NCBI GenBank assembly: GCA_041650835.1
Contig: JBAZKL010000001.1
Coordinates: 440,185-504,184 of the forward strand
Source of the DNA: Candidatus Omnitrophota bacterium
GTDB taxonomy: Bacteria; Omnitrophota; Gorgyraeia; Gygaellales; Profunditerraquicolaceae
DNA: 64,000 nt
Direction: 5' to 3'
A model generated the notes under the pieces. The model ran no database searches. It had not been told where the DNA came from and was given only the letters and a program-made list of their open reading frames with translations. Below are positions 19,985-40,828 of the stretch, piece by piece. Position 1 is the stretch's first letter. Every line of letters begins with the position of its first letter. Position numbers and translations under genes: made by a program.

Positions 19985-20165
19985 ATGTCAATAGTTATCA
20001 TGCTCGGCTGCGCAGCACCCCAGCTTAATAGGAATGCTGGGTGCGCCCGTTCCGGGCAGCAAGCGCGCACCGGCGCAATTCCGCGGCAGAAAGCCGCGCA
20101 CCCGCCTCTCCAATAAGGCGGGGTGCCGATTAGCGCCGGGTGTAATCAGTTATCGTTGGGCAAAG
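19985..20165. repeat. GC-rich structured interspersed repeat, family B, copy 1 (GCACCCAGC...GCTGGGTGC / GCGCAATTCCGCGGCAGAAAGCCGCG / CAATAAGGCGGGGTG modules)
   Basis: It contains several perfect short stem-loops. The same ~150 nt element recurs at 23815-24044 (same orientation) and 40655-40828 (reverse complement). Confidence 0.8.
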
Positions 20166-20189
20166 TCATCGATAACCGACTATTACTTC

Positions 20190-20864
20190 CTATAGACACC
20201 TTGAATCGATGAATCCCGATATTTCTTTTAGCTCATTAAGCACCATATCAGCGCCGGACAAATACTCCCGGGATAAACTCGTAGTAAGCGCGATACAGAA
20301 CATATGAGCCCGTTTTGCCGATTCAATGCCCAAAGGCGCGTTTTCAATGACCACGCATTCCTTCGGCGCGACCTTCAAGGATCTCGCGGCTTTCAGATAA
20401 GGTTCGGGATGGGGCTTGCCCTCTTTTACCTGGTCGCCGGCGACAATATGATCGAACAAGCTCCTGATCGAAACAGGCAGAATCCGCTCGACTTCCCGCA
20501 GCGGAGTGCCGGTCACTAACCCTAAAAGATACCCCTTCCCTTTAAGGCAAGCCAGGAGTTCCATAACATCATTAAAAATAAACCGTTTAAAATATTTCTT
20601 AAATATCTTCTGGCGTAAAGAAAATATTTTTTTCAGTAACACCGGAGTAGGCAGGCAGCCGGAGCGGATCAAGAGATGGTTTAAGGTCTTATCCCAACGC
20701 TCTCCTTCTTTTAAATAAACATCAAAACAGCTCACCCGCACGCCAAACTGCCGCAATGATTCATACCAGGCGATAAAATGATACGGCATGGAATCAATAA
20801 TAACCCCATCCATATCGAAAATAATGGCTTTCGGCTGTGACTTAAGCTTATTTTTATTGGTCAT
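20190..20864 (-). CDS. HAD-superfamily hydrolase, beta-phosphoglucomutase-like subfamily
   Basis: HAD motif I (IIFDMDGVIIDS), motif II (GLVTGT) and a C-terminal motif with conserved Asp. Confidence 0.8.
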   Translation of the reverse strand: MTNKNKLKSQPKAIIFDMDGVIIDSMPYHFIAWYESLRQFGVRVSCFDVYLKEGERWDKTLNHLLIRSGCLPTPVLLKKIFSLRQKIFKKYFKRFIFNDVMELLACLKGKGYLLGLVTGTPLREVERILPVSIRSLFDHIVAGDQVKEGKPHPEPYLKAARSLKVAPKECVVIENAPLGIESAKRAHMFCIALTTSLSREYLSGADMVLNELKEISGFIDSRCL

Positions 20865-20904
20865 ATTTTAAGAAACAATAACTGAATTATCATTAACAGA
20901 TACT

Positions 20905-21075
20905 TATATAATGTTAATGATAAAGTCTAAAGTCTAAATAACAAAGGAAGATTAAAGGTTAAAGGTTAAAGGTTAAAGGTTAAAGGTTAAAGGTTAAAGG
21001 TTAAAATTTAATCTTTATTCTTTGAATTTCCTTTGTTATTTAAGCTTTAAACTTTAGACTTAACTTATTATATCT
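20905..21075. repeat. Hairpin interspersed repeat, family A copy, with an expanded (GGTTAAA)7 heptamer tract in the loop
   Basis: Arms gtctaaagtctaaataacaaaggaa ... ttcctttgttatttaagctttaaactttagact flank a 7x AGGTTAA tandem tract at 20953-21005. Confidence 0.85.
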
Positions 21076-21171
21076 GATTCCCGGATGTTCAGATCACCCG
21101 ATCTCCTAATCCCTGATTACCTGTTCTCCGGATAACCGACCGTCGACTATAGACCCGTTGCGACCTGTGCC

Positions 21172-22989
21172 TCAAGCCCTGCCTGTTTCGACTACCATAT
21201 GCTTTATCTTCTTACAGACGGGGTCATTGAGAAGTTCATCTAATGCCGCCGGAAGCGTTAAAGACCAGTTCAGAGGGCTTACCGTGCCGGGAGTATTGAT
21301 CCTATATTGATAGGCATCGCCTTTTAATAGATCGGTAATTCCTAACCAATCAATAAGCAACTGGATAGCGAATATCGAATTTGATTTAAGCGTCAAATGC
21401 AGTATTTTCGAGATGATCTGCACATCAGATTTTTCTCTCATGCACCCGGAAATACCCAGGTGTTTCCACAACTTCTCTTTTTCCCGATACGTGTTCGCGT
21501 ACATATCGACAAAATCCATAACTTCCTCTTTGCGCTTGTTTAAAACCGCCAACAGCTTGTCGACAGAATCGATACTATCAAGCCAGCGCAGCCTCCCGTG
21601 ACGGGAACGCTTATGGTCGAAAAGATCATCTTTAACGCTATGATAATCGATCCAGCGATCCTGGCATTTCCTCAAAAAAAGCGCTTCATCCACGGTCCCT
21701 GCCTCATTTTCCCACCAAGCCGCCCAATTCGTTGTATCATGCGTTGACAACATGGATACGGAAAATAACCGGTAATCCTGCGGCTCCAAGAAATCATGTT
21801 TGACATCCCAATCTTTAACCCAGCGCTGAACTTCATTACCGGGAATACCAAACTCTTTTAACGCCTCAGTACACACCCTTGGAACCACCCCCAGGTCTTC
21901 AGCGCACAAAAGCATCTCTGTATTCTCTAATATCACGGCTAATAGCTTCCTGCCCTGCTCTGCCCACTTACTTTCATCCCTCGGGTCGAAAAAACCATGC
22001 AACCCTTTATTTTCCTGAGGCTCCTGCGCCGGGATACTCCAGATCCGGAATAAACCCACCACATGGTCGATGCGTAAAATATCATAAAAATTCTGGGCGT
22101 AACGCAATTTCTCTTTTAAATACCGGTAACCATCGGCTTCGATCCGCTCCCAATTGTACGTCGGAGTCCCCCAACGCTGGCCTTTTTCACAATACATATC
22201 GGGCGGAGCTCCCGCGGTAAGTTCAAGATTGAAAAATTCAGGATGCGCCCAAACATCTGCGCTGTCCAACGAAACCAGGATAGGCAGATCGCCTTTCAGC
22301 AAAACATTCTTTTGCCGGGCATAAGCCTTGACCTCTTTAAACTGGCCGTATAAAAGCCACTGGGCCCATATTTCGAAGGCGATCTTCTCGGGATGATCTT
22401 TACCGAAACTTTCCAGGGCCGGGCTCTCGCGGTTTTTATATTTCTCTTCCCATTCATACCAGGGGCTACCGTGATGATATTCTTTGAGCGCCTTAAAAAA
22501 GGCGTAATCATACACCCAATAGGCATTCTCTTCCCTGAATTTATCAAAGCCCGCTAAATCATTCTCAGTCTCCAGATTAAAAAGTTCATTTAACAAGCCG
22601 GCCTTTTCGCCTTTTATTTTATAATCCAGATGCTTCTTCCCGCAGGGAAAGGCCTTGCGGATGGCTTTTATCTTTGACTGAAGCGGCTTTACGTCGCCCT
22701 CAGGCATCATCGCAAACGACACATACATCGATTCCAAGGCAAAAGAACTGACGGAGTCATACGGGCAAAACGTACTGCCGACCTCATTCATCGGTAAAAG
22801 CTGCAGGAGCGAATTACCGGTCTTATGGGCAAATTCAACAAGCAGCTTCATATCGCCGAAATCCCCTATCCCCAGGCTTTCTGAAGAATACGCGGAGAAC
22901 AACGGGACTAAGATACCGGCGCGCTTTTCAACACCGGTCTTTTTCCACTTCTCACCCGATAAAGTATTAAAAAAAACAGCTCTCTGCAT
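21172..22989 (-). CDS. malQ: 4-alpha-glucanotransferase (amylomaltase, GH77)
   Basis: The N-terminus reads RAGILVPLFSAYSSESLGIGDFGD. LRIDHVVGLFRIW is a GH77 signature. The start is trimmed to MQRAVFF (22989), because the longer ORF runs into the repeat. Confidence 0.85.
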   Translation of the reverse strand: MQRAVFFNTLSGEKWKKTGVEKRAGILVPLFSAYSSESLGIGDFGDMKLLVEFAHKTGNSLLQLLPMNEVGSTFCPYDSVSSFALESMYVSFAMMPEGDVKPLQSKIKAIRKAFPCGKKHLDYKIKGEKAGLLNELFNLETENDLAGFDKFREENAYWVYDYAFFKALKEYHHGSPWYEWEEKYKNRESPALESFGKDHPEKIAFEIWAQWLLYGQFKEVKAYARQKNVLLKGDLPILVSLDSADVWAHPEFFNLELTAGAPPDMYCEKGQRWGTPTYNWERIEADGYRYLKEKLRYAQNFYDILRIDHVVGLFRIWSIPAQEPQENKGLHGFFDPRDESKWAEQGRKLLAVILENTEMLLCAEDLGVVPRVCTEALKEFGIPGNEVQRWVKDWDVKHDFLEPQDYRLFSVSMLSTHDTTNWAAWWENEAGTVDEALFLRKCQDRWIDYHSVKDDLFDHKRSRHGRLRWLDSIDSVDKLLAVLNKRKEEVMDFVDMYANTYREKEKLWKHLGISGCMREKSDVQIISKILHLTLKSNSIFAIQLLIDWLGITDLLKGDAYQYRINTPGTVSPLNWSLTLPAALDELLNDPVCKKIKHMVVETGRA

Positions 22990-23418
22990 AACACCCCGTC
23001 TTGTTAAGATTATTGAAAAACAATACGTTAATTTTAAAGGATAAAGGTTAAATATCAAAGGAAGGTTCAAGGTTTAAGACTAAAGAATTAATCTTAAACT
23101 TTCCTGCCTGCCGGCAGGAACCTTTATTCTTTGAATTTCCTTTGTTATTTGAGCTTTGAATGAACCATGCCTCAGGCGCTTATGGTTCATTCATCCCGAG
23201 CTCTGTCGAGGGGTTAAACTTTGGACTTTTCCGTCACCCTGATATCCAGAATTTATGTAGTTGGGTTAGGGTTAAGATTTTAGTTTGGTTGTTAGGAATG
23301 GTTGTTAGGTTACTAAAAACCCAACTACTCAACCAAACTACCAAACTAACCGCTTAACCATGACCTAACTACTATTTAGGTCAAACCAAGGAATATACTC
23401 TATCACTTTTTCCTGAAA
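22990..23418. repeat. Composite repeat island: a family A hairpin copy (with CCTGCCTGCCGGCAGGAACC core), plus a GAACCATGCCTCAGGCGCTTATGGTTC...CCCGAGCTCTGTCGAGGGG module, plus GGTTGTTAGG / CCTAACTAC modules
   Basis: It lies between doxX and malQ. The second module recurs at 58491-58560 and, reverse-complemented, in CCCCTCGACAAGCTCGGGG at ~39785 and ~40115. Confidence 0.8.
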
Positions 23419-23814
23419 TTACAACTTTTTCGTGATACACAATTTATCAGGGCCGCTTAAGAGTAACGCCAGGCAGACACAAAGGATCACCAGGTTATAT
23501 TCAAAACCGCCCGACGACAAGAATAAACCCTTTGCCAGATGCACCTTAACGGTTGCCACTACCATCAACACAAATATCAAAGCAGACGATACCCTGACAC
23601 CTATCCCTAAAATCAAAAAAAGCCCTCCCAAGAGCTCCACATACGCGGCCACGTATGCCCAGAATGACGCGGGAGCAAACCCCATCCCGGCTAACATCTT
23701 TGCGAATCCCGGGATCCCCGGTCCTCCGAACAAACCAAAAGCTTTTTGCAACCCATGCCCCAAAAACACAACACCTAAGCCCAAGCGCAACGGTACACTC
23801 GCCCAGTCTTTCAT
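23419..23814 (-). CDS. DoxX-family membrane protein
   Basis: ~130 aa with four TM helices in a DoxX-like pattern (LRLGLGVVFLGHGLQK). The start is trimmed to MKDWASV, because the upstream extension lies in a repeat. Confidence 0.65.
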   Translation of the reverse strand: MKDWASVPLRLGLGVVFLGHGLQKAFGLFGGPGIPGFAKMLAGMGFAPASFWAYVAAYVELLGGLFLILGIGVRVSSALIFVLMVVATVKVHLAKGLFLSSGGFEYNLVILCVCLALLLSGPDKLCITKKL

Positions 23815-24044
23815 GCTTAACCTCCTGCCGCACAAAGCGGCACACCGGCGCAATCCCGATCTGCGCCGGGTGTAACTTGCATACACATACCAACGCAATT
23901 CCGCGGCAGAAAGCCGCGTACCGGCGCAATTTTGCCGCAGTAAGCGGCATACCCCGCCATTCCAATAAGGCGGGGTGCAATCTGCGCCGGGTGCTCGGCA
24001 TACCCAGCAATCTCATATGCTGGGGTGCTCTTAAGCGTTGGGCG
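23815..24044. repeat. GC-rich structured interspersed repeat, family B, copy 2 (longer, with internal partial duplication)
   Basis: It contains gcaattccgcggcagaaagccgcg, ccattccaataaggcggggtg and ctgcgccgggtg twice. It generates overlapping spurious ORFs on both strands. Confidence 0.8.
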
Positions 24045-25181
24045 TTACTTACTATTTTTCCCTTTTCCTATTAAAGCTTTAATGATCCCCCAGCGATTGC
24101 GCAGCCCATACGAACGAAAAACGCACATAAGAAAATGCAGCATCGTCGCCGCTAAGCCTTTGACCTTAACCCCCAGGACAATACCGCAAGACTGATTATT
24201 GGCCATCGGGATAATATACCCCAGGTCAACCGGCCTGTATTTCTTTAACGGCCTGCCATGGATAAGATTCAAGATATTATCAGCCGCGGCCTGCCCTTGC
24301 GTTATCGCGAATTGGACCGCCATGCGCAGCGCGTTATTCTGATAACTGAACGCTGCCGCGTCGCCGGCCACAAAACAGGCGTCCCGGAACATAAGATTAT
24401 CATCGACCAATATCCTGCCCTGCGGATTCTTTTTTATCGCCAAGTGCTGCGTAAAATCCACTCCCCGCACGCCTGCCGCCCAGATGAACATCGCGCGGCG
24501 AAAAACCTCACCGCTGGAAAGCGCGACAGCATCATCATCGATCTTCTCAACCGTCGCCGGACAGATCACCTCCACGCGTAAACGCTTAAGGTTATCCATA
24601 ACATACTGCCTCATCCATTGCGGAAGCGGCCCTAAGATCGCGGGGGCTCTTTCGACCACAACAACCCGGTTTGCTTTATTTTTCGCATCCAGCCACCTGC
24701 GCAAGGACGTCGCGATCTCAATACCGGTATAACCGCCGCCGCAGATAAGGTATGTTTCATATTCATTCCGCGCGAGTGAGCCGGTAAGCTTTATCGAATC
24801 CGCCGCGCTGTCTAAGGTAAAGGCGCGTTTTTGTATTTCCTGGTTCGCGTAAAAATTGGTTTCCGAGCCGCTGGCAATGACCAGATAATCAAAGGCGAGC
24901 CGCTGGCTCACCGTAATAACCTCTTTCTTCTCCAGATCTATTGAACTGACATTTTCCTGAACAAACCGGAAACGATAGCGCCGGGCGTATGTTGCGATAG
25001 GGCAGGCCAAATTCTCAGGGTCGATGCCCCTGCCCAAAGTATCCGGAAGCAAAGGAAGAAAACTTGACGCCGGCTGTTTATCGATCACTATTACTTCAAG
25101 CTGCTCTTTACCCCGCAAGAGCCGCTTCGCGGCTGACAACCCCGCGAAACCACCGCCGATAATGACGACCTTCTTCATCAA
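24045..25181 (-). CDS. FAD-dependent pyridine nucleotide-disulfide oxidoreductase, type II NADH dehydrogenase (NDH-2)-like
   Basis: N-terminal GxGxxG (KVVIIGGGFAGLSAAKRL), a second dinucleotide-binding motif (ICGGGYTGIE) and ~378 aa. Confidence 0.7.
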   Translation of the reverse strand: MMKKVVIIGGGFAGLSAAKRLLRGKEQLEVIVIDKQPASSFLPLLPDTLGRGIDPENLACPIATYARRYRFRFVQENVSSIDLEKKEVITVSQRLAFDYLVIASGSETNFYANQEIQKRAFTLDSAADSIKLTGSLARNEYETYLICGGGYTGIEIATSLRRWLDAKNKANRVVVVERAPAILGPLPQWMRQYVMDNLKRLRVEVICPATVEKIDDDAVALSSGEVFRRAMFIWAAGVRGVDFTQHLAIKKNPQGRILVDDNLMFRDACFVAGDAAAFSYQNNALRMAVQFAITQGQAAADNILNLIHGRPLKKYRPVDLGYIIPMANNQSCGIVLGVKVKGLAATMLHFLMCVFRSYGLRNRWGIIKALIGKGKNSK

Positions 25182-25190
25182 TTGACTCCT

Positions 25191-26114
25191 CTATCGTTTC
25201 AAGATAAGGTCCAGGACCACAACGATACTTACCAGAGCATGTACGGCTATCGTCAGCTGTGATGATTCCATTAATCGCAACTTATCTTTAACCGATCCCT
25301 TTAATATTCCAGCGGCTTTCACTGCCGGGATAAGCGCCGCAAAAGATGCCCACGCGAAAGCACCCAGGAACCCTCGCGCGATATTGATGCCGACGAAAAC
25401 CAAGGCCAGAACGATCAGCGCGCAGTAAACCCGGTAGGCATGTTCAGGCCCCGAAGCACTGACCCAGTTGTATTTTCCCACGGCTATATCAACCGGGTAA
25501 TCAGGCACTTCATTGGCGAATAAGATCGCGGCAGTCAGGAACCCAAACGGAAGAGATACCAGAAAACTCTTGAACGCCGGAAAGAGGCCTGACTGAATGA
25601 AATACCCGCCCATGACGCAAACCGGCCCAAAGAGCGTAAAGATCACTACCTCTCCCCATCTGCGATAGGAAAGCCTGGCCGGCCGCGCGGAATACCCCCA
25701 GGCCAGTAAAAGGACCACAGCAAACAACCAAAGTACCAGGATGCTTTTTAATACCGCCGCAAGGAAGAAAACACCGGCAGATGAAACAAGCGCGAAAGAA
25801 ACCGCAGCGTACAAGTAAAAGCGTTCTGAAAGGATATTCTCCTGAATAAGCTTGGAGCCGCCGAAAAACGAATAAAATGTTTTATCCTGCCAGTCATTGC
25901 CGCTCTTTGAATCGGCAAAATCATTCAAAAGATTAGCGCTGAGATGCGTGGAAATCACTATGACGAGACCCAAGAAAAACCCAAGGGCGTTAAACTGCGG
26001 TTTTGCCAAAAGAGAACCTGCCAGGTACGGAAAAAGGCTGGCGGTAATGAACGCGAGCCTCAAAGCTCTGATAAAATTCAATATGCCCATTTGAGAACAA
26101 GAGGATTTTACCAT
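25191..26114 (-). CDS. UbiA-family prenyltransferase (MenA-like 1,4-dihydroxy-2-naphthoate polyprenyltransferase candidate)
   Basis: 8-9 TM helices and an Asp-rich NDFADSKSGND motif. It is divergently paired with the polyprenyl synthase. Confidence 0.65.
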   Translation of the reverse strand: MVKSSCSQMGILNFIRALRLAFITASLFPYLAGSLLAKPQFNALGFFLGLVIVISTHLSANLLNDFADSKSGNDWQDKTFYSFFGGSKLIQENILSERFYLYAAVSFALVSSAGVFFLAAVLKSILVLWLFAVVLLLAWGYSARPARLSYRRWGEVVIFTLFGPVCVMGGYFIQSGLFPAFKSFLVSLPFGFLTAAILFANEVPDYPVDIAVGKYNWVSASGPEHAYRVYCALIVLALVFVGINIARGFLGAFAWASFAALIPAVKAAGILKGSVKDKLRLMESSQLTIAVHALVSIVVVLDLILKR

Positions 26115-26157
26115 ATAATTATTTGCAAATCATTTCCTTATATGATAACATAAAAAA

Positions 26158-27198
26158 ATGCTGAATAAAATCAAAATCGCCATTGACCGCGAATTACCGA
26201 TCTTCCTCGACCGTCTTAACAGGTCTTTTTCCCTTAGAAAACTTTCTCCTATCCTCTACGAATATATCCATGATTATGTGTTACGGCCCGGCAAGCGGGT
26301 ACGCCCCACGCTCCTGATCATGGGGTACCTCGGCTTCGCGCGCCGCAAAGCCCGCGGGCTCTATACCAGCGCGCTTTCCCTGGAACTCCTCCATGACTTC
26401 ATGCTCGTGCACGACGATATTATCGATAAATCGGATTTAAGGCGCGGCAAACCCGCCATGCACACCATGTTCCGGGCCTATCTGAACAGCGCTAAAGACA
26501 TCAAGTTTAACGGCGAAGACCTCGCGATCGTCGCCGGTGACATCATGTACGCGATGGGCTTGCACGCCTTCCAGGCGGTTCGCGTCGATCTGACAGACAA
26601 AGAAAAAGCGATGAAAAAGCTCATCGAAGCCGCTATCTATACCGGGTGCGGCGAGTTTATCGAACTTTTATACGGGACAAAGGATATCTCTGAAATAACC
26701 AAAGCCGACATCTATACTATTTACGACCTGAAAACAGCGCGCTATACCTTTTCTTACCCCCTGGCTATCGGAGCTACGCTTGCCGGAGCAAACGACAAAC
26801 AAATACAGGTACTTTTTGATTTTGGCGCGCGCCTCGGCAGGGCATTTCAGATCAAAGATGACGCCTTAGGGATATTCGGGACAGAAGAAGAGATCGGAAA
26901 ATCGATCCTGACAGACCTGCAGGAAGCAAAGAAAACGATCTTTATCTGGCATGCGTATAATCACGCAGACAGGAAAAACAAAGGAACGATCAAGAGAATT
27001 CTCCTGAAGGAAAAAATAACCGCGACAGACCTCAAAGCGATCAGGCAGATCATCTCCGCTTCAGGCGCCTTAGAATTTGTCAGAAAGGAGATCAAGGACT
27101 TGATCGGCGAGGCTCAAACGCTTTTGAGATCATCAAGCATAAAAAAACAATACCAGTCATTGCTGCTTTCCTATTCCCAGCAGATCCTCAGCGTATGA
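26158..27198 (+). CDS. Polyprenyl diphosphate synthase (trans-isoprenyl diphosphate synthase family)
   Basis: First DDxxD motif in LVHDDIIDKSDLRRGKPAMH and second in FQIKDDALGIFG. Confidence 0.85.
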   Translation: MLNKIKIAIDRELPIFLDRLNRSFSLRKLSPILYEYIHDYVLRPGKRVRPTLLIMGYLGFARRKARGLYTSALSLELLHDFMLVHDDIIDKSDLRRGKPAMHTMFRAYLNSAKDIKFNGEDLAIVAGDIMYAMGLHAFQAVRVDLTDKEKAMKKLIEAAIYTGCGEFIELLYGTKDISEITKADIYTIYDLKTARYTFSYPLAIGATLAGANDKQIQVLFDFGARLGRAFQIKDDALGIFGTEEEIGKSILTDLQEAKKTIFIWHAYNHADRKNKGTIKRILLKEKITATDLKAIRQIISASGALEFVRKEIKDLIGEAQTLLRSSSIKKQYQSLLLSYSQQILSV

Positions 27199-27249
27199 TC
27201 CGCTCCCCCCAAGCCTACCGGTAATTCAAGATGAATTTACTATTCGAAG

Positions 27250-29823: not shown

Positions 29824-29836
29824 AGCAGCTTCTCAA

Positions 29837-30633: not shown

Positions 30634-30648
30634 AAAACAAAGCCTTTC

Positions 30649-32639: not shown

Positions 32640-32647
32640 GCGATCCT

Positions 32648-33511
32648 TTAAGCCCGGGGATGAGCTTTATCATATACGCTCTTAAGCCGGTCAGTGGTCA
32701 GGTGCGTGTAGATCTGCGTCGTTGAAAGGTTCACGTGCCCCAGGAGCTCCTGCACGCTGCGCAGGTCCGCCCCGCGGTTTAAAAGGTGCGTGGCGAATGA
32801 ATGGCGCAGCGTATGCGCCGATACCCCCTGCTTTATCCCGCACATGCGTATATATTTCTTGACTATATTGCGCACGCCCCGGTCGCTGATACGGCTATTG
32901 TTTTTATTCAGGAACAAGACATCCGTCTGTTTCTTCCTGTTCTCAAGATACGCCCTGAGCGCCGCGAGCGCCGTATCGCCGACAGGGACGATCCGTTCCC
33001 TTCTTCCTTTACCCATCACCTTAACGACACAGCTGAAGAAATCGACATCGGGAATGCTTAACCCGACGAGCTCGCCGATACGCATCCCGGTACTGTAAAA
33101 CATCTCCAGGATCGCCCGGTCGCGGTGCCCCCGCTCATCATCAGTCGCCGCCGCGTCTATCAGCCTGCTTACCTCTTCTTCTGTCAAGAAAGAGGGAAGA
33201 TGCTTATCCTGCTTGGGGCTTGATATCGCCAGAATCGGGTTATTCTTCAAAAAGCCTTCCCGGACCAGGAATTTAAAGAATGAACGCAGCGAAGAAAGCC
33301 GGCGGGAGACCGTCCGGGCAACCAACTTTCTTTCTTTTAATGTCGCCAGATATTTACGCAGGGTGAGATAGTCGACTTTTTCCAGATCAGACTCACCCAA
33401 AAAAAGCCGGAAAGCCTCAAGGTCCAAATGATAATTCAGGATGGTATACTTAGAATAATTCTTTTCGATCTCTAAATACCTGATAAACTTCTCGATGTAT
33501 TTATCAGTCAT
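32648..33511 (-). CDS. Tyrosine site-specific recombinase XerC/XerD
   Basis: Catalytic R..HxxR..Y signature (HTLRHSFATHLL ... LLGHVNLSTTQIYTHL) and an N-terminal SAM-like core-binding domain. Confidence 0.9.
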   Translation of the reverse strand: MTDKYIEKFIRYLEIEKNYSKYTILNYHLDLEAFRLFLGESDLEKVDYLTLRKYLATLKERKLVARTVSRRLSSLRSFFKFLVREGFLKNNPILAISSPKQDKHLPSFLTEEEVSRLIDAAATDDERGHRDRAILEMFYSTGMRIGELVGLSIPDVDFFSCVVKVMGKGRRERIVPVGDTALAALRAYLENRKKQTDVLFLNKNNSRISDRGVRNIVKKYIRMCGIKQGVSAHTLRHSFATHLLNRGADLRSVQELLGHVNLSTTQIYTHLTTDRLKSVYDKAHPRA

Positions 33512-35497
33512 TTAAGCTTGGGTTTCCGGCAATGCCTTTGAGGTATAGGTGCATTGCGGATATTTTGAACAGCCGTAAAAATACCCGCGGATCGAGCGGC
33601 GTTCGATCAATTCCCCGTCACAGCCGGGAGAAGGGCACTTTACCCCGCTGGTTATGGATTTAGAGCTCTTGCATTCCGGATATCCGGAACAGCTCAGGAA
33701 TTTGCCTTTTCTGCCCCACTTCAAGATCATCGGCTTGCCGCAAAGCTGACAGACCTCATCCGTGGTTATCACTTCCTTCTGGATATTCTGCTGGGCGAAA
33801 TCAACGCTCGTTTTAAACGGCCCGTAGAATTCAGATAATATTTTTATTTTATCGGCATTGCCTTGCTCGACCTCATCAAGCATTTCTTCCATATTCGCGG
33901 TAAACTTAACATCCATGACCTTAGGAAAATACTCGACCAGGAGGTCGCAGACTTTAAAGCCCAGTTCCGACGGATGAAAATACCCTTTGATCCTGCGTAT
34001 ATAATCCCGCAGGATAAGGGTAGCGATGATCGGCGCGTAGGTCGAAGGCCTGCCGATGCCCTCCTCTTCCAACGCCTTGACCAGGGAGCTGTCGGAAAAT
34101 CGAGGCGGCGGCTTGGTAAAATGCTGGGAGGGCAGAAGCTGCAGCAGCTTCAATATTTCATCTTTCTCCAAAGCCGGGATCTCGTTCTTCGCTTTAGGCT
34201 TCTCCTCTTCTTCTTCATTTGTTTTGCTATAGACTTTCATAAAACCTTCAAAGATAAGGGAACTGCCGCTTGCCGCTAAGCCGTATTTTCCCGCTCCGAT
34301 AGCCACCGAAGTAACCGCGTAACGCGCGGGCATCATTTGACTGGAAACAAAACGGTTATAGATCAACTCATACAGCCTGAATTGTTCGGCGCTCAAGAAT
34401 TGCCTGATACTTTCAGGATGACGGCTCACGTCGGAGGGCCTGATCGCCTCATGCGCCTCCTGGGCGAATTTCTTGACCTTATAAACAGGCGGCGCCTCCG
34501 GAAGATACTCCTGCCCGAAACTCTTTTGGATATATTCGCGGACATAAGCTACCGCTTCCTTGGATACCGCGGTAGAATCCGTACGCATATACGTGATCAG
34601 CCCCACGGGGCCGTCCTCCCCGATATCGATACCTTCATAGAGTTGCTGCGCGACGATCATAGTCTTCGTCGCGTTAAATTTCAATTTATTAAACGATTCC
34701 TGCTGCAGGGTACTGGTAATGAACGGAGGGTCCGGGTTACGTTTTTTTTCGCTCTTTTTGACGTCAAGCACGACAAACTGCTCTCCCTGCAATTCCCGGA
34801 TGATCGCGTCTGTTTCCTCTTTACTCTTAATTTCAATTTTTTTATCTTCACGTTTATCGAGCTTCGCGGTAAAAACCCCCGCATTTTCAACCGAGGGCTT
34901 AGAAAGCTCCGCTTCTACCTCCCAGTACTCCTGAGGGATGAAAGCATTGATCTGGCGTTCCCGGTCCACGATCAGGCGCAGTGCCACCGACTGGACCCTG
35001 CCGGCGCTTAAGCCCCGGACGATCTTCTTCCATAATAACGGGCTCAAGAAATATCCGACGAGCCTGTCCAGGATCCTCCTGCCGATCTGCGCTTCAACCA
35101 TATGCATCTTAAATTCACGCGGATGCTCAAATGCGCTTTTAACCGCGGAAGCCGTGATCTCGTGGAACTCAACGCGGTGAACCTCTTTATCTTTAAAAAG
35201 CCTGTTCTTCAAATGCCAGCCGATAGCCTCTCCTTCCCGGTCAGGGTCGGTAGCGATATAGATCACGTCTTTGTTCTTGGCCTCTTTCTTCAGGTCAGCA
35301 AGCATCTTCTTCCTGCCGAAAATAACGACGTAATGAGGCTCGAAATTATGCTCAATATCGATCCCCAGGTCTTTCTTGGGAAGATCGATCAAATGCCCCA
35401 TGGAAGAAACAACCGAATATCCGCTGCCGATTATCTTGCCGATCGTTTTAGCTTTGGTGGGAGATTCAACTATAACTAAGCTTTTTTTCTTCATCAT
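33512..35497 (-). CDS. topA: DNA topoisomerase I with C-terminal zinc-ribbon domains
   Basis: Toprim N-terminus (SLVIVESPTKAKTI), active-site Tyr region (GLITYMRTDS) and C-terminal CxxC zinc ribbons. Confidence 0.9.
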   Translation of the reverse strand: MMKKKSLVIVESPTKAKTIGKIIGSGYSVVSSMGHLIDLPKKDLGIDIEHNFEPHYVVIFGRKKMLADLKKEAKNKDVIYIATDPDREGEAIGWHLKNRLFKDKEVHRVEFHEITASAVKSAFEHPREFKMHMVEAQIGRRILDRLVGYFLSPLLWKKIVRGLSAGRVQSVALRLIVDRERQINAFIPQEYWEVEAELSKPSVENAGVFTAKLDKREDKKIEIKSKEETDAIIRELQGEQFVVLDVKKSEKKRNPDPPFITSTLQQESFNKLKFNATKTMIVAQQLYEGIDIGEDGPVGLITYMRTDSTAVSKEAVAYVREYIQKSFGQEYLPEAPPVYKVKKFAQEAHEAIRPSDVSRHPESIRQFLSAEQFRLYELIYNRFVSSQMMPARYAVTSVAIGAGKYGLAASGSSLIFEGFMKVYSKTNEEEEEKPKAKNEIPALEKDEILKLLQLLPSQHFTKPPPRFSDSSLVKALEEEGIGRPSTYAPIIATLILRDYIRRIKGYFHPSELGFKVCDLLVEYFPKVMDVKFTANMEEMLDEVEQGNADKIKILSEFYGPFKTSVDFAQQNIQKEVITTDEVCQLCGKPMILKWGRKGKFLSCSGYPECKSSKSITSGVKCPSPGCDGELIERRSIRGYFYGCSKYPQCTYTSKALPETQA

Positions 35498-36605
35498 GAT
35501 CCCTTATAAATTGTTTGCCCGGAAGTTGTTTAATTAATTTCTGGACCTGTAGCCGTAAGAGTGCCCCCAGCACAAAAGCAGTATCCAGATTCACCCGTCC
35601 TGCTATCTCATCCAAAGAAACAGGATAATTCGATATAAGGCCATACACCATCATCTCCTCAGGGGACAAAGAAAGAGGCTCATTGCTCCCCATATCGCGC
35701 CGGGCCGGCCGCAGGGTTGAGCGTTGATCCAAGTTTTGCGCAAAGGCAAACTCTTCAATAATCTCCTCGGCGCAAGAAACTAATTTCGCCCCTTGCTTGA
35801 TCAATTCATGCGTCCCGTAGGAATTGCGCGCGCCCAGATTTGCCGGTAACGCGAAGACTTCCCGCCCCTGCTCTAACGCGAAATCAACCGTGATCAATGC
35901 TCCGCTGTTCCGGGCTGCTTCAACTACCAGAACGCCTTGCGATAACCCGCTGATAACGCGATTGCGGCGGGGAAAGTTTTGCCTCCACGGCCCGGTCTCC
36001 ATGGAGAATTCAGAAACAACTACTCCGGATTGAATGATCTTTTCCAACAACGCGCGGTTCTCGGGAGGATAGATATGGTTAAACCCGCTGCCCATGACCG
36101 CGATGGTCCGGCCTCCCCGCGTTAACGCGGCCGTGTGAGCGGCCGTATCGATACCCCGCGCCATCCCGGAAACAATAGTGAAGCCCCGTTCAGATAACTC
36201 GCCGGCGAACTTTTGCGCGTAGGTTATCCCATAATAAGATGCCTGGCGGGACCCTACTAAAGCCAGGCTCCGTTTATCTTCCGGGACAAACTCACCGCGC
36301 ACGTACAAAACGATCGGCGGATCAGGTATGCACGATAAATTCCCGGGATACCCGCGCTCTCCCAGCGTCAAAAGTTTGATCCCTGATCTTCTGATCAGCC
36401 GGAATTCCCGTTGTAGATCTCCCGCTTTTAACGAGCCTATACGGCCGGCGATATTGGCGCCTATTCCACAGACGGATATGATCTTCTCCCGGGGCGCCTT
36501 TAAAATATTCTCCGGCTTTCCGAAGGCATCGAGCAGCTTCTTTAAACGGATGCTGCCGACGTCACAAACCATATTTAATCCTACCAAAGCTTCTAAATCA
36601 TTCAT
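35466..36605 (-). CDS. dprA: DNA-processing protein DprA (Smf)
   Basis: Rossmann-like DprA core (ALVGSRQASYYG...TIVSGMARGIDTAAH) and a C-terminal winged helix. Confidence 0.85.
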   Translation of the reverse strand: MNDLEALVGLNMVCDVGSIRLKKLLDAFGKPENILKAPREKIISVCGIGANIAGRIGSLKAGDLQREFRLIRRSGIKLLTLGERGYPGNLSCIPDPPIVLYVRGEFVPEDKRSLALVGSRQASYYGITYAQKFAGELSERGFTIVSGMARGIDTAAHTAALTRGGRTIAVMGSGFNHIYPPENRALLEKIIQSGVVVSEFSMETGPWRQNFPRRNRVISGLSQGVLVVEAARNSGALITVDFALEQGREVFALPANLGARNSYGTHELIKQGAKLVSCAEEIIEEFAFAQNLDQRSTLRPARRDMGSNEPLSLSPEEMMVYGLISNYPVSLDEIAGRVNLDTAFVLGALLRLQVQKLIKQLPGKQFIRDHDEEKKLSYS

Positions 36606-37107
36606 GATCTGCGGTGGCCAGGGAGATCTTCTCTGCTGCCTCCTGAATGGATACGCCTGAAGTATCGATACTCACATCCGCTAACGCGTACGCGGCAGCC
36701 CGGATTTTCAACAAAGATTCGATTTTCGCCTTTGGGTCGGGGACATTCAATAAAGGACGATGGGCAAACCTCCTCGTCCTCTCAATGATCACTTCCGCGG
36801 AAGCAGTCAAACAAACAAGGATACCTGCTTTTTTCATGATCTCGATATTCTCCGGATCGGTCACGATGCCTCCGCCGCAGGCGATCACGCAGGAGCTTTC
36901 TAAAACAGCTTCGCGTAAAGCCTGTTTTTCCAGCTGCCGGAAATACGGCTCTCCGTCGCGGGCGAAGATATCGGCGATCTTTCTTTTCTCACTTGCTTCG
37001 ATACGATCGTCAAGATCGACAAACCGCCAGCGCTTCTTCCGGGCAAGCGCCTTGCCCACGGAAGTCTTGCCTGTCCCCATAAATCCTACGAGAAAAATAT
37101 TCTTCAT
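36598..37107 (-). CDS. aroK: Shikimate kinase
   Basis: IFLVGFMGTGKTSVGKALA Walker A motif, ~170 aa. The start is trimmed to MKNIFL (37107), because the longer ORF overlaps spoVG. Confidence 0.8.
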   Translation of the reverse strand: MKNIFLVGFMGTGKTSVGKALARKKRWRFVDLDDRIEASEKRKIADIFARDGEPYFRQLEKQALREAVLESSCVIACGGGIVTDPENIEIMKKAGILVCLTASAEVIIERTRRFAHRPLLNVPDPKAKIESLLKIRAAAYALADVSIDTSGVSIQEAAEKISLATADHE

Positions 37108-37159
37108 TCTGCGTTCGATAAAAGCTCTAAAGCGAAAGCCGCTTAAAGCCGTAACGGGA

Positions 37160-37417
37160 TCATTCCTGGTACGCGGACAAAACCACCCCGGTAAGTTCAA
37201 CAAGCGCTTGCTTGGTCGCGGGATAAAAAACATTATACCATTTCCCGTCCTTAGACTTTTCCTGGGGCATCCCCAGAAACAAGCCGTTTTTTCCTTTCAC
37301 CACGCGCAAGCCTTTAACGATAAAATCGCCGAAAGACACATCGACAAAAGCCTTTAAACTGGAATCGCCTTCCAAACGGAACAACCGCACTACCGTAACA
37401 CCTGTTTCCCCGGACAT
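37160..37417 (-). CDS. spoVG: Septation/regulatory protein SpoVG
   Basis: FVDVSFGDFIVKGLRVVKGKNGLFLGMPQEKSKDGKWYNVFYPATKQALVEL closely follows the SpoVG consensus (...IRVIEGKNGLFVAMPS.KT.DG.F.DIAHPI...). Confidence 0.8.
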   Translation of the reverse strand: MSGETGVTVVRLFRLEGDSSLKAFVDVSFGDFIVKGLRVVKGKNGLFLGMPQEKSKDGKWYNVFYPATKQALVELTGVVLSAYQE

Positions 37418-37570
37418 ATCGTTCCTCCTTTTAAAGCGCCTTTTGAGCAAAAGGCACGTCTTTTAGTAAGGCATTAAGCTTAAGCGCACCCTCTTGGCGC
37501 CATACTATGCCCTCACTAACAATAGACGTTTGAGGAACGATTTTCTAACAAAAATATTTTTAATATCCCG

Positions 37571-37876
37571 CTAAAGCGACTGTAATTTCGTCAGGATCTC
37601 AGTGACACCGACATACTGCGCGCCTTCTTCACGCACGACTAATTTGTAGAACTCGCAGACCATGCAATTGCCCACTTTCGCGGCGAATGCCCCCTGGACC
37701 TTGCCGCCGCAAAGCGTTCCCGATACCGCCCAACAGGCACGGCCGGCATTCTTGCCGCTATTGATCTTATCCACCCGTATCTCAAGAGCTACGGGGCACG
37801 CCCCTAATTCAGAGACTTTAATGCCTCCCGGCTCCCGGCCGCATTTCTTGAACTCCCAGCAGTTTTGTTTTGCCAT
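37571..37876 (-). CDS. Small cysteine-rich protein with two Cys-Trp motifs (two-CW-like domain)
   Basis: 101 aa reading MAKQNCWEFKKCGRE...GRACWAVSGTLCGG...CMVCEF, i.e. seven Cys and two CW motifs. It resembles N-terminal two-CW sensor domains (inference). Confidence 0.45.
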   Translation of the reverse strand: MAKQNCWEFKKCGREPGGIKVSELGACPVALEIRVDKINSGKNAGRACWAVSGTLCGGKVQGAFAAKVGNCMVCEFYKLVVREEGAQYVGVTEILTKLQSL

Positions 37877-37933
37877 AAAATCTTCTCCTTTTAGAGCATT
37901 TCTGACCCGGCAAAGAACGGCACTTTACCAAAC

Positions 37934-38980
37934 TTACGCTTTCTTGAGCCTTAATAAATACGCTTTATAGGCGCTCTTAATATCCACAAGGTTATCCTCG
38001 CCGAACTTCTCTAAAAACGCGCGAGATATCTCGAAAGCAGCCGCGCTTTCCGCGACAACGCCGGCAGCCTCCACGACGCAAGTATCCGAACGCTCGACCG
38101 CCGCTTTGGAAGCTTTCTTCGAAATGATATTCACCGAATCCAACGGGTCCATGAGCGTGCAAATAGGCTTCATACACCCCCGCAGGATAATATCTTCTCC
38201 GTTGGATATCCCGCCTTCTATGCCACCGGCATTATTCGTATTACGGTAATATCCTTTTCCACGGGAATAATAGATCGCGTCGTGCGTCTGTGAACCCCGC
38301 TTTCCGGCATAACCAAAACCTAAGCCGATCTCAACCGCTTTAATACCGGGTATTGCCATGACAGCCTGAGCCAGGCGGCCGTCAAGCCTGCGGTCAGGAT
38401 GAGCATAGCTGCCTAAGCCGACAGGAATACCGGTGATCCCGATTTCGAAGATCCCCCCCAAAGTATCTTTTGCTTCCTGCGCCTGAATGATCTTAGCAAT
38501 GATCCCTTCCTTACTACTTTCCCCCCCCACTGATATGACACTACTGGAAATAGAAATATTGAACTCCCGTAAGAATATCTTACAAAGAGCGCCTATCCCA
38601 ACGGTAGCAACTGTGCTGCGCGCGGAAGCCCGCTCCAAAACTTCCCTGATATCGCTTAACCCGTATTTTAATATACCCGGCAGGTCCGCGTGCCCGGGAC
38701 GGGGACAAACTACTTTCGCTAATCTCTCGATACTGGAATCTTTATTTAAGACCAAAAGCGAGACCGGACTGCCCAGGGTTACCCCGTTCTTTAAACCGGA
38801 AATGACCTGAGCGCTATCCTGTTCGATTTGCATGCGTTTTCCCCGGCCAAATCCCTGTTGACGGCGCTTTAATTCCTTATTAATCGCTTCAACATTTATT
38901 TTTAAACCTGCCGGCATCCCTTCCAGAATAACCACATTACCCTTCCCATGCGATTCACCGGCAGTTAAATAACGTAACAT
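37934..38980 (-). CDS. aroC: Chorismate synthase
   Basis: MLRYLTAGESHGKG N-terminus and GRSSARETAMRVAAG-like internal signatures, 348 aa. Confidence 0.9.
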   Translation of the reverse strand: MLRYLTAGESHGKGNVVILEGMPAGLKINVEAINKELKRRQQGFGRGKRMQIEQDSAQVISGLKNGVTLGSPVSLLVLNKDSSIERLAKVVCPRPGHADLPGILKYGLSDIREVLERASARSTVATVGIGALCKIFLREFNISISSSVISVGGESSKEGIIAKIIQAQEAKDTLGGIFEIGITGIPVGLGSYAHPDRRLDGRLAQAVMAIPGIKAVEIGLGFGYAGKRGSQTHDAIYYSRGKGYYRNTNNAGGIEGGISNGEDIILRGCMKPICTLMDPLDSVNIISKKASKAAVERSDTCVVEAAGVVAESAAAFEISRAFLEKFGEDNLVDIKSAYKAYLLRLKKA

Positions 38981-39101
38981 AATAAGGCCTCCTCTTCTTT
39001 CACTTTTTCACTTACTGCGGATATAATTGTTAATTATTACATAGCAATATATTACATGAACATCTAAACACTGTAAAGAAACTTTTACTTGTATCGCGAT
39101 C

Positions 39102-39665
39102 CTATTGCCAAAGGCCGCGCTTATTTTCGCGCGCGTCCTGGTATAATTTCAGGAATAGATCAGCATATTTCACGTTTGGAGGATATGTCATTAAAGAAGC
39201 ATACCCCTGTTTTACGATCTCGGCATTTATAAAGGTACCATCCGGTAAATAAGCATACCCCAAGAGCCTTCCGTATTTATCCTTTTTTTCCACGTCAAAT
39301 TCCAATTTGACGCGCTTTCCTTCCACCAGGCCCCGGGTAAATTGATACGAGCGCTTCCCCAATTTCTTAATGGTTTCAACGTTCTGGCTCATCCGCTGGC
39401 TATCCCGGTATAACTTTTTAGACTCATGCATCTCAGGAGTATCGATGCCGATAAGCCTAACCCGTTGCCCGCCTTCTAGTACCAGAGTATCGCCATCAAC
39501 CACTCTATCTACAAGTATATCATAATACTTATCTTCAGCGCCAATTGGCGCGTTCGCCTTATTACTGCTTTGATTACCTATCCAACCTGCCTGCTCACAA
39601 GCAGCAAGGCAAAGCGAAAGAAAGATCGCGGATAAAAGTAACCCTTTCTTAAACATCTTTTTCAT
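39102..39665 (-). CDS. Secreted thermonuclease (SNase/micrococcal nuclease-like) lipoprotein
   Basis: Signal peptide with lipobox (LAAC). VVDGDTLVLEGGQRVRLIGIDTPE, YGRLLGYAY and LMTYPP are SNase-fold signatures. Confidence 0.8.
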   Translation of the reverse strand: MKKMFKKGLLLSAIFLSLCLAACEQAGWIGNQSSNKANAPIGAEDKYYDILVDRVVDGDTLVLEGGQRVRLIGIDTPEMHESKKLYRDSQRMSQNVETIKKLGKRSYQFTRGLVEGKRVKLEFDVEKKDKYGRLLGYAYLPDGTFINAEIVKQGYASLMTYPPNVKYADLFLKLYQDARENKRGLWQ

Positions 39666-40170
39666 TCTTAACTCCTTTATTACACTATATTTACTTAGAA
39701 ATAATTATTGGTGATCCGCTTATCCGGGTACCCCAGTCGCCAGAGCCCCAGTCACAAGTCGCAAGACACAGGTCACATGACACCCCTCGACAAGCTCGGG
39801 GCAAGCAAGTAGTCGATAGTCTATAGTCAATGGTCGATAGTCCATAGTTATAGGTTATGGTTAAGGTTAAGATGTTAGTTTAGTTGTTAGGTTAAGGAGT
39901 TGGGTTATTTAACGTTAATGATAAAGTTTAAAGCTCAAATAACAAAGGAAATCCAAAGAATAAAGTATAAAGTTTAAAATTTCCTGCCTGCCGACAAACA
40001 GAAAACTTTAAACTTTAACCTTCCTTTGTTATTTAGCCTTTACCATTTAGACTTAACTTGTCATATACCTAACTACCAATAATAAAGTCACAAGACACAG
40101 GTCGCAAGACACCCCTCGACAAGCTCGGGGCAAGCAAGTAGTCGATAGTCCACAGTCCATAGACGGGAGA
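39666..40170. repeat. Composite repeat island upstream of the helicase locus: CCCCAGTCGCCAGAGCCCCAGTCACAAGTC module, TAGTCCATAG modules, GTTAGGTTAAGG module, a family A hairpin copy (39901-40060), then a ~95 bp segment (40061-40166) that reappears as a direct repeat at 42881-42975
   Basis: Direct sequence comparison of 39901-40166 with 42717-42975. Confidence 0.8.
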
Positions 40171-40436
40171 AACTTTACGGTTTTTGCTTTAAGCGCACAT
40201 TTGAAAACTTTTGCCAAAAGTCTGCGAGGAATTACGAATCGCCGTAGCACTCGCGACCACGAAAGTCAACTGGCGAAGGCGATGAGTAAACCGAAGCAGA
40301 CGGCAAAATGTTTTTTGTGCGCGTAAGCAAAAAGCGTAAAATTTCCCGGCTACTACCGACTAGTTGCAACATGCGACTGTTCAAGTTTCTCAATATTCAC
40401 TTGCACGCTCACTTGGCACTATTCTATTCTTTTTTA

Positions 40437-40466
40437 TTAGATAAATCAATGGTTTTGGACTATAAT
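40437..40466 (+). promoter_or_regulatory. Candidate sigma70-like promoter (TTAGAT-18-TATAAT) upstream of a small ORF and the helicase
   Basis: The sequence is ttagataaatcaatggttttggactataat, followed by GGAG and an ATG at 40497. Confidence 0.3.
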
Positions 40467-40654
40467 AGTGATGCCACAACTTATGGAGCGAATGAAATGA
40501 GCGAACATAAGTTGTTTGACCGAACTATCCTGCCGAGTACGTCAAAATTATGGAACAGAATTTTGACGTATCTTACGAGGCAGGATGCATATTCGGTTAT
40601 CGGAGGCTCGGTTATCGCTAACCGAGAACCAAGACCCGAGAACCAATAAGCAAA

Positions 40655-40828
40655 AACTGACAACACCCGGCGCAGATCGCACCCCGCCTTATTGGAATGG
40701 CGGGGTATGCCGCTTACTGCGGCAAAATTGCGCCGGTGCGCGCTTCCTGCCCAGCAAGGACGCACCCAGCATTCCTATTAAGCTGGGGTGCTGCGCAGCC
40801 GAACACCAAGAACCGAGCACCGATAACC
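40655..40828. repeat. GC-rich structured interspersed repeat, family B, copy 3 (reverse-complement orientation), abutting the helicase start
   Basis: The reverse complement aligns with 19990-20150. Confidence 0.8.

Follow-up and report, generated by a model that had tools for sequence, protein, structure and literature searches.

What is the GC-rich, hairpin-rich element that recurs in the intergenic spacers of this stretch of Candidatus Omnitrophota DNA, and is it a regulatory RNA, a site on the DNA or a repeat that spreads by itself? The window, i.e., the whole stretch of 64,000 nt that was analysed, comes from an uncultivated and widespread phylum. An initial annotation of it had noted three copies of the element and had proposed a distinct structured RNA or a recombination element. 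The three loci are probably clusters of a proliferating family of palindromic repeats of the Omnitrophota, located in transcribed spacers and resembling the repetitive extragenic palindromes (REPs) and bacterial interspersed mosaic elements (BIMEs). A full-text literature search on Omnitrophota/Omnitrophica returned no paper describing such a repeat in the phylum, and this self-nesting family of REP/BIME-like palindromic units, akin to known repeat systems, is previously undescribed.

The GC-rich multi-hairpin element is indeed present three times, in each case between genes. Copy 1 spans positions 20001–20151 and copy 2 positions 23815–24044, both on the − strand, and copy 3 is located at 40655–40805 on the + strand. 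A repeat search of the window detected inverted arms at 20001–20151/40655–40805 (151 nt, 79% complementary) and at 23915–23993/40664–40742 (79 nt, 97%), and short direct matches that link 20069–20145 with 23847–23978. Moreover, matches in the window to a covariance model (R1), which was built from copies in other genomes, are confined to the three loci, i.e., 20068–20142 (−; 78.6 bits, E = 1.5e-15), 40664–40738 (+; 66.9 bits, E = 8e-13) and 23919–23993 (−; 61.4 bits, E = 1.6e-11). With a unit-level covariance model (R2), run with filters off, seven units were found in the 64 kb, every one of them within the three loci. The clusters are also predicted to fold more stably than dinucleotide-shuffled sequences (z = −2.9, −4.7 and −3.6 for copies 1, 2 and 3, respectively). 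The repeat is a distinct structured family, unrelated to the AT-rich repeats of the window, and one copy, copy 3, does lie just upstream of the helicase start. Rfam 15 gave no match at the gathering score in the window, the match of copy 3 at a permissive threshold being noise (E above 2).

Sequences are given here on the strand of the neighbouring gene, i.e., − for copies 1 and 2 and + for copy 3. The basic unit measures approximately 46 nt and consists of a 9-bp GC-rich bulged hairpin with an 11-nt loop, directly followed on its 3′ side by a clamp hairpin of 5–6 bp. In the main hairpin, a bulged C (CAC-C-N5-6 ... N5-6-GUG) and the loop (UAAUNGGAAUU) are conserved, and both features are maintained across metagenome-assembled genomes (MAGs). 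The stem-loops had been described as perfect; the main hairpins carry the one-base bulge instead (GCACCCCAGC / GCTGGGTGC). The clamp hairpin (U-N5-loop-N5-A) is opened by a U and closed by an A. In some copies its pyrimidine loop (UUUCU, CUCCU) could pair with the Shine–Dalgarno (SD) motif, inconsistently across the family. The ends of the unit, CAC(C).../...GUG, are base-paired and are mostly flanked by A at the 5′ and by U at the 3′ side. Units occur singly, in head-to-tail arrays, occasionally inverted, or nested, in which case ..GG and AAUU in the loop of one unit flank a second unit.

The nested form, a three-way junction of 75 nt, is common to all three copies in the window. Its outer hairpin, CACCCGGCGC ... 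GCGCCGGUG, encloses the linker UAAUCGG, the hairpin CACCCCGCC-UUAUUGGAAUG-GGCGGGGU, the hairpin UGCCGC-UUACU-GCGGCA and AAUU, in this order. An un-nested example is found before the SD of the DoxX gene (23827–23872), where CACCCGGCGC-AGAUCGGGAUU-GCGCCGGUG is followed by UGCCGC-UUUGU-GCGGCA and GGAGG. As the junction linkers UAAUCGG and AAUU sum to the 11-nt loop of the un-nested hairpin (UAAUCGGAAUU), the junction is a unit of approximately 46 nt inside the loop of another unit.

In copy 1, the junction (20068–20142, −) with outer hairpin CACCCGGCGC/GCGCCGGUG encloses an inner unit at 20083–20125 (−; R2 44.4 bits), which consists of the bulged hairpin and the clamp CGCGGC-UUUCU-GCCGCG. An inverted unit, CACCCCAGC-TTAATAGGAAT-GCTGGGTG plus GCCCG-TTC-CGGGC, lies beside it at 20016–20059 (+; R2 37.2 bits, hairpin scan). 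Copy 3 likewise combines a junction (40664–40738, +) and its nested inner unit (40680–40723, +; R2 47.4 bits) with an inverted unit (40746–40790, −; R2 28.9 bits, hairpin scan). The hairpin that the initial annotation listed first (20016–20043, +; 40763–40790, −) is identified by the hairpin scan and R2 as a unit running opposite to the rest of its cluster. Copy 2 had been credited with a partial internal duplication; it is instead a nest of three levels with two further units. The level-1 or outermost hairpin, CGCCCAACGC/GCGUUGGUA (5′ arm at 24035–24044, 3′ arm at 23888–23896, −), contains level 2, CACCCGGCGC/GCGCCGGUA, a three-way junction at 23919–23993 (−) that is 97% identical to that of copy 3, and this in turn contains level 3, CACCCCGCC/GGCGGGGUA, the nested unit at 23934–23977 (−; R2 47.4 bits). 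The first additional unit is a degenerate hairpin, CACCCCAGC-AUAUGAGAUU-GCUGGGUA, at 24001–24028 (−), recognised from sequence and fold with a weak R2 match at 23983–24027. The second is the single un-nested unit at 23827–23872 (−; R2 54.7 bits), directly 5′ of the DoxX SD GGAGG (23821–25). The level-1 arms recur in two related loci, L137/L138 (CACCCAACGC/GCGTTGGTA), with a compensatory variant in a third, L139. Outside the window, a head-to-tail array of five units at 4850–5120 of locus L047 ends at an SD and an open reading frame (ORF) of 31 codons. Four tandem copies of a 25-nt repeat (TAGCCCAACAGGGCATCCTGGTGGA) follow this array at 5170–5270.

To describe the distribution of the family, one genome per species was scanned for the exact outer arms with any content of 30–60 nt between them (CACCGGCGCAAT-N30-60-GCGCCGGGTG). 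This exact-pattern scan yielded 55 loci, approximately 30 of which have the same inner architecture. These structured matches are distributed phylum-wide, in 14 MAGs of 41–49% GC, 13 labelled Omnitrophota/Omnitrophica and one Planctomycetales; the remaining loci are unstructured chance matches in genomes of 51–74% GC. The ‘uncultured Planctomycetales’ MAG (CAZPNW01; L005, L022, L045) shares the sub-family of the element with the window, and the heptad repeats around it as well. It could be an Omnitrophota genome under a wrong label, or closely related to the organism from which the window derives.

Covariation was analysed in 28 full copies aligned to R1, an alignment made from MAFFT only being structurally poor and therefore replaced. 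In these 28 copies, 96.5% of the cells form standard pairs, compared to 28–47% when the 3′ partners are slid by 1–3 columns. Each of the 15 inner-helix pairs is variable, both partners having changed in 14, and none of 500 shuffles reached the observed covariation score. The stems thus keep pairing by compensatory change, and the comparison across copies that the initial annotation had suggested turned out strongly positive. The outer stem P1 is invariant in this set, as it was required by the search pattern, and it supplies no covariation evidence. Compensatory variants of the outer arms do occur in copies found otherwise, i.e., CACCCGGCC/GGCCGGUG (L073), CACCCGGCCC/GGGCCGGUG (L106), CACCCAACGC/GCGUUGGUA (L137) and CAUCUCGCGC/GCGCGGGUA (L139). 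Being fitted to the model, the alignment leans towards the structure of that model; the same structure is supported by the slid-partner control, by single-sequence folds of nearly all copies and by the four model-free copies just named (L137, L139, L073 and L106).

Whether the structure serves as RNA or as DNA is a separate question. Among 662 cells, five are G·U (0.8%) and 12 are C·A, ten of the latter at one junction-closing pair, and substitutions are nearly all from one Watson–Crick pair to another. A wobble-pair test of strandedness on these cells (5 G·U vs 12 C·A) was uninformative on which strand folds. Because G·U pairs are almost absent, covariation cannot tell an RNA role from a DNA role, and the Watson–Crick-only pattern fits palindromes kept as DNA equally well. 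From the double proposal of a structured RNA or a recombination element, the second half is closer to the evidence, and an RNA gene does not follow from the covariation. In the inner part of the element, which was not fixed by the search pattern, median identity amounts to 0.83 for copies from one MAG and to 0.60 for copies from different MAGs, and several pairs at unrelated loci of the same MAG reach an identity of 0.98.

The family also changes between close relatives. Relatives of the helicase downstream of copy 3 were found in 80 metagenomic loci (47–97% identical). In the DNA of these relatives, two junction matches in 810 kb and 14 unit matches in 845 kb were detected, which differs approximately 7-fold in density from the seven units in the 64-kb window. 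L057, of which the helicase is 97% identical, lacks copy 3, though it shares the promoter region and the heptad-repeat leader. Synteny of UbiA, NDH2, DoxX, GH77, HAD and mechanosensitive (MS) channel genes is conserved among relatives. L139 has no copy 1 in the orthologous spacer, where the HAD stop codon runs straight into a conserved promoter; the approximately 195 extra nt of the window at this position include copy 1. A reverse case exists as well, since L070 and L080 carry a unit between the SNase stop codon and the aroC SD, while this spacer is AT-rich and unit-free in the window.

Growth of an element can be followed at the spacer between the genes of the type-II NADH dehydrogenase (NDH-2) and DoxX, which copy 2 occupies entirely. 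The spacer measures 230 nt in the window and 111 nt in L137/L138 (NDH-2 89% identical), where it holds a single junction with the same outer arms. In L139 (NDH-2 79% identical), a spacer of approximately 100 nt contains a junction in which every stem has been changed by compensation. In P0003 (NDH-2 82% identical), judged from gene calls only, NDH-2 and DoxX overlap by 4 nt and leave no spacer. Relative to the element in L137/L138, the window has two added blocks of approximately 80 and 45 nt, the latter being the single unit before the DoxX SD, which is absent from L137/L139. In copy 2, a simpler orthologous element has been expanded by nesting.

The elements are non-coding, located in spacers and co-oriented with the adjacent genes. 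In 17 of the 28 copies, the SD motif starts +15 to +17 nt after the outer hairpin, directly after the clamp, and the start codon is located at +25 to +31. A co-directional upstream ORF stops 0–10 nt before the element in ten of the 28. Typically, the element takes up the space between a stop codon and the following SD or tRNA 5′ end. Copies were found between the genes for L22 and S3 and between those for GroES and GroEL, and genes for S6, acyl carrier protein, lysyl-tRNA synthetase (LysRS), CarB, aspartate kinase, a response regulator and an M48 peptidase lie downstream of others. Three copies end 0–13 nt before a tRNA, i.e., tRNA-Gly (L010, L012) or tRNA-Pro (L021), and one of these tRNA-adjacent copies sits between tRNA-Leu and tRNA-Gly. 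At these sites (L012 2379–2392, L010 6113–6128 and L021 683–698), the 3′ arm of the clamp overlaps the first 2–5 nt of the tRNA acceptor stem, so that leader hairpin and acceptor stem would compete for these bases. A riboswitch or another gene-specific leader was excluded because the downstream genes (M48 peptidase, S6, GroEL, CarB, S3, DoxX, helicase, tRNAs and others) are functionally unrelated and do not form a coherent set.

Promoter-like sites indicate where two of the window copies would stand in transcripts. A TTGACA-17-TAAAGT site (19963–19991, −), conserved in L139, is located directly downstream of copy 1, which places this copy in the 3′ region of the HAD gene and not in a 5′ untranslated region (UTR). 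A TAGATA-17-TATAAT site (40438–40466, +), conserved in L057, is located upstream of copy 3, which therefore lies within the helicase 5′ UTR. Both copy 3 and its gene run opposite to copies 1 and 2, with a GC skew that does not change sign along the window, so that in this small sample orientation tracks the gene rather than the replichore.

Altogether, gains and losses, bursts of copying within genomes, arrays, inverted and nested units and a patchy distribution give the family the hallmarks of a proliferating repeat. We infer that multiplication of the units takes place at the DNA level, as in REP/BIME elements. Whole 46-nt units would insert into AT-rich spacers and into their own loops through a putative enzyme that reads the bulged hairpin and its loop. 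The units would then be co-transcribed with their neighbours and fold in the mRNA as passive structural punctuation. Possible effects on the mRNA include a barrier to exonucleases, segmental mRNA stability and a modulated translation of the downstream gene.

A number of observations weigh against this reading. Firstly, no transposase was found linked to the units by tblastn over 986 kb of Omnitrophota DNA, in which the TnpA protein of IS200 and the RAYT of E. coli served as queries. This search identified two Y1 (IS200/RAYT-type) genes in relatives (L070 6135–6863, −, and L102 4939–5550, −; Pfam PF01797, E = 1.8e-16), which are flanked by unrelated terminal inverted repeats (TIRs) of 19 nt (TAGTAGACGCTTTATCTAA) and 27 nt, not by units. 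Secondly, alignments of filled and empty sites at three orthologous positions revealed no target-site duplication, the copy 3 junction being ambiguous as its insertion boundaries lie partly in heptad repeats. These alignments also revealed no TIR beyond the hairpin arms themselves. Thirdly, the Omnitrophota units do not have the unpaired GTAG (GTRG) or CGTC tag of classical REPs, their ends being paired. Fourthly, they are found at a fixed distance from an SD or tRNA and are strictly co-oriented with genes, unlike REPs (PMC3733652), which points to a host function or to very specific targeting. Lastly, the orthologous P1, P2 and P4 hairpins at the NDH-2/DoxX spacer show compensatory changes in place, which suggests selection on structure at this site.

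Side observations at the insertion sites concern the flanks. The 5′ flanks just before the element read AACYGAYNA, perhaps a context preferred for insertion. Copy 1 (20150–20185) and the copies in L022 and L045 are flanked by similar CGGTTATCG...CGATAAC motifs. The helicase 5′ UTR contains heptads, (CGGTNNN)n and then their complement (NNNACCG)n, which form a long imperfect palindrome (40585–40660 and 40800–40828 in the window, 405–480 in L057). This palindrome is uninterrupted in L057; in the window the GC-rich element sits within its 3′ half.

It is possible, if considerably less probable than the spread of a REP/BIME-like repeat, that the element is primarily a cis-acting RNA module of the host. 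It would then act as genome-wide ‘punctuation’ of operons: a dedicated RNA-binding protein or ribonuclease would recognise the three-way junction and the clamp hairpin in the transcript, and the signal would separate or stabilise cistrons, release tRNAs or set downstream translation. Its spread by duplication would be secondary. This explanation accounts well for the orientation of all copies along their genes, which in the window follows the gene strand and not the replichore, and for the clamp that abuts the SD (+15 to +17 nt) or a tRNA 5′ end. The conservation of the bulge and the 11-nt loop across MAGs, the in-place compensation at the NDH-2/DoxX spacer and the tolerance of copies within groESL and at the L22–S3 junction are in line with it too. 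Against it, copies are missing, with no visible replacement, from orthologous sites of near-identical relatives, and their density differs approximately 7-fold between the window and 845 kb of relatives. The existence of inverted units, the low share of G·U pairs (0.8% of cells) and the lack of a match to an Rfam family argue against it as well. Neither does the element seem to act as an insulator that keeps the SD open, as the predicted unpaired probability of the SD is not higher, and if anything lower, than in controls (median 0.22 for 18 element-bearing starts vs 0.41 for 47 controls from the same loci; one-sided Mann–Whitney p = 0.95).

The fixed spacing and the nesting can also be joined in a tentative, rather doubtful proposal that goes beyond a REP-like repeat. 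The element might be a new type of hairpin element that homes to the loops of its own units, between GG and AAUU, and to sites just 5′ of SDs and tRNA 5′ ends, mobilised by a putative enzyme. It might instead, or in addition, have been domesticated as operon punctuation read by a dedicated RNA-binding protein or nuclease, with a logic that could be compared to that of plastid intercistronic expression elements or tRNA punctuation.

Far less probable is a site that acts in double-stranded DNA, i.e., a protein-binding or cruciform site in spacers for gyrase or a nucleoid protein, an uptake signal or a recombination site. BIMEs do bind gyrase and IHF (PMC3184786), and the palindromes are Watson–Crick-only and symmetric on both strands. 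The arms CACCCGGCGC/GCGCCGGTG are conserved across MAGs as well, though the search pattern required them. Against such a site, the inner stems change freely while they still pair, and the outer arms vary by compensation in the pattern-free copies (L073, L106, L137 and L139). Binding to duplex DNA would moreover need neither a bulge on one particular strand nor a fixed polarity to genes; with free stem sequences and a strand-specific bulge, a duplex-binding site is unlikely.

Transcription termination or attenuation between genes is still less credible. Hairpin clusters have been proposed as terminators (PMC8355165), and copy 1 has a stop codon on one side and the next promoter on the other. 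Yet, no copy in the window is followed by a U-tract and a terminator scan found none on the three copies, while other copies are located inside obligate operons (L22–S3, groES–groEL, tRNA-Leu/tRNA-Gly) and copy 3 in a 5′ UTR. The absence of U-tracts and the positions inside obligate operons make a terminator role unlikely. Finally, the idea that the overlapping ORFs are real genes, or that the similarity is due to chance or assembly, has a negligible probability and both readings are excluded: ORFs of 53–156 aa can be read across copies, but they overlap each other on both strands as well as the conserved DoxX gene, relatives place the helicase start at 40829, and the architecture recurs in independent assemblies (14 MAGs, JGI contigs) with E-values down to 1e-19.

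Copy 1 lies between the HAD phosphatase gene (20190–20864, −) upstream and an MS-channel-like gene (19179–19859, −) downstream, and copy 2 between NDH-2 (24045–25181, −; stop at 24045) and the real start of DoxX (ATG at 23814–23812, −). The NDH-2 of the window is identical to a protein labelled Candidatus Omnitrophota bacterium at NCBI. Copy 3 precedes the helicase gene (40829–42703, +). The latter gene does not start at 40697; because 80 relatives align from residue 1 of the GTG start, the gene begins with this GTG at 40829, and the extension 40697–40828 (the first 44 codons) is an artefact of the repeat. The element consequently ends approximately 25 nt before the helicase start. Together with this extension, the ORFs 23546–24016 (−), 23655–24074 (+) and 40481–40765 (−) are artefacts on both strands, as the initial annotation recognised, and further spurious ORFs cover the repeat at 20034–20195 (+) and 40585–40872 (+). 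These ORFs overlap one another or the genuine DoxX gene. The peptide string ..RRNFAAVSGIPRHSNKAGC[ND]LRRVL.. is common to ORFs 23655–24074 and 40481–40765; such strings are shared only because of the DNA repeat.

Several other structured sequences are present nearby. The stretch from the promoter-like site downstream of copy 1 to the MS-channel-like gene contains a hairpin that resembles a terminator and has a U-tract (CCATAAGAAAGGTTTTTCTTATGG TTTTG; 19889–19912, −). This hairpin is also conserved in L139 and could act as a leader attenuator. In the helicase leader, a block of approximately 110 nt (40473–40582) with the hairpins ACAACTTATG...CATAAGTTGT and CCTGCCGAGTACGTCAAAATT...AATTTTGACGTATCTTACGAGGCAGG is not present in L057. 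This block is a further palindromic insertion prone to indels and has no sequence relationship to the GC-rich family. The AT-rich family A (AAGGTTAAAGG... / CCTTTGTTATTT around a CCTGCCTGCAGG core) is large, with direct and inverted copies in spacers, at 20900–21070, 23016–23160, 39900–40060, 42728–43140, 44278–44440, 51023–51150, 53286–53420 and 58373–58510. The helicase/NUDIX spacer, which holds family A repeats in the window, is occupied in L070 by the Y1 gene. A third family (AAGTCACAAGACACAGGTCGCA and TAGTCGATAGTCCATAG motifs) is found at 39733–39857, 40062–40172, 42887–42974, 7378–7432 and 49750–49794, and part of it resembles sequence beside the TIR of the L070 Y1 gene. In addition, two direct repeats of 221 nt with 78% identity, 246 nt apart from start to start, are located at 52402–52868.

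As an example of a palindromic repeat with nesting in its own loop, the family is unusually clean. The regularity to the single nucleotide before ribosome-binding sites and tRNAs extends into groESL and the S10 ribosomal-protein operon. If mRNA stability or translation were affected, the units would be a source of rapid expression differences between close strains; if targeting were enzymatic, this would point to a novel, hairpin-specific insertion mechanism. For the annotation of MAGs, the repeat yields false ORFs and false N-terminal extensions, and the family can now be recognised with a covariance model.

How does the family compare with known repeat systems? Some of these systems were considered and rejected. 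An integron attC site does not fit, since the arms CACCC.../...GGTG are not the R''/R' core sites (RYYYAAC ... GTTRRRY) and the element is surrounded by housekeeping genes of conserved synteny instead of cassettes. A transposable element of the miniature inverted-repeat type (MITE) was rejected for want of a target-site duplication and of a TIR beyond the hairpin arms, and a phage origin because the sole match to a viral contig is an unstructured chance match within coding sequence.

A closer comparison is offered by the mycobacterial interspersed repetitive units (MIRUs), which reportedly go back to Supply et al. in 1997. MIRUs are repeats of 40–100 bp in operon spacers and polycistronic mRNA with GC-rich internal inverted repeats, and they are likewise absent from homologous sites in a related species (PMC3184786). 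Unlike the units described here, MIRUs contain small ORFs with ends that extend into the flanking genes, show tetranucleotide direct repeats where a site is filled, and do not nest. A coding repeat of the MIRU type was discarded, as the upstream stop codon precedes the element, a separate SD and start codon follow it, no reading frame is conserved and the stems vary freely. The Correia or REP2 elements of Neisseria resemble the family in being small, non-autonomous, close to gene starts and co-transcribed, and in altering the 5′ regions of genes by their presence or absence from strain to strain; REP2 supplies a ribosome-binding site (PMC2649163, PMC3184786). In contrast to what was seen for the Omnitrophota units, Correia elements have 26-nt TIRs, a TA duplication, an IHF site and ends that form promoters, and they are substrates of RNase III (PMC2649163, PMC3184786). 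The BOX repeats of pneumococci are modular, highly structured, transcribed and intergenic as well, with a variable number of internal modules, and the enzyme that mobilises them is not known; boxA-boxBn-boxC, however, form one long stem, with neither loop nesting nor a fixed spacing to the SD (PMC3049150).

The likeness to REPs and BIMEs goes furthest. REPs, known from Enterobacteria and Pseudomonas with GTAG- and CGTC-tagged super-families, were first described as an intercistronic operon element (PMC3733652, PMC3184786). Like the Omnitrophota units, they are short, GC-rich, imperfect palindromes (approximately 30 nt for REPs) in an AT-richer genome, extragenic and transcribed, found alone or in mosaic clusters with inverted pairs among them, and with copies that differ between related genomes (PMC3733652, PMC3184786). 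REP stems of 6–9 bp, some of them bulged, and sub-families with alternative complementary stems (PMC3733652) have their counterparts here too. In size, the bulged hairpins of 28–30 nt agree with REPs, in the seven units of the window and approximately 30 junction copies in 14 MAGs. BIMEs are clusters in which palindromic units alternate in orientation and are separated by conserved linker motifs; the Omnitrophota units form clusters too, copies 1 and 3 each having one inverted unit, while most units are head-to-tail or nested. REPs adjoin upstream ORFs and are located at a variable distance from downstream ones (PMC3733652). They further differ in that each Omnitrophota hairpin is coupled to a small clamp hairpin, that the Omnitrophota units nest in their own loop to give three-way junctions, and that G·T pairs, frequent in REPs, are nearly absent from them. 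Because of the missing tag, the clamp hairpin, the nesting and the fixed downstream spacing, the Omnitrophota family falls outside the GTAG and CGTC super-families of REPs.

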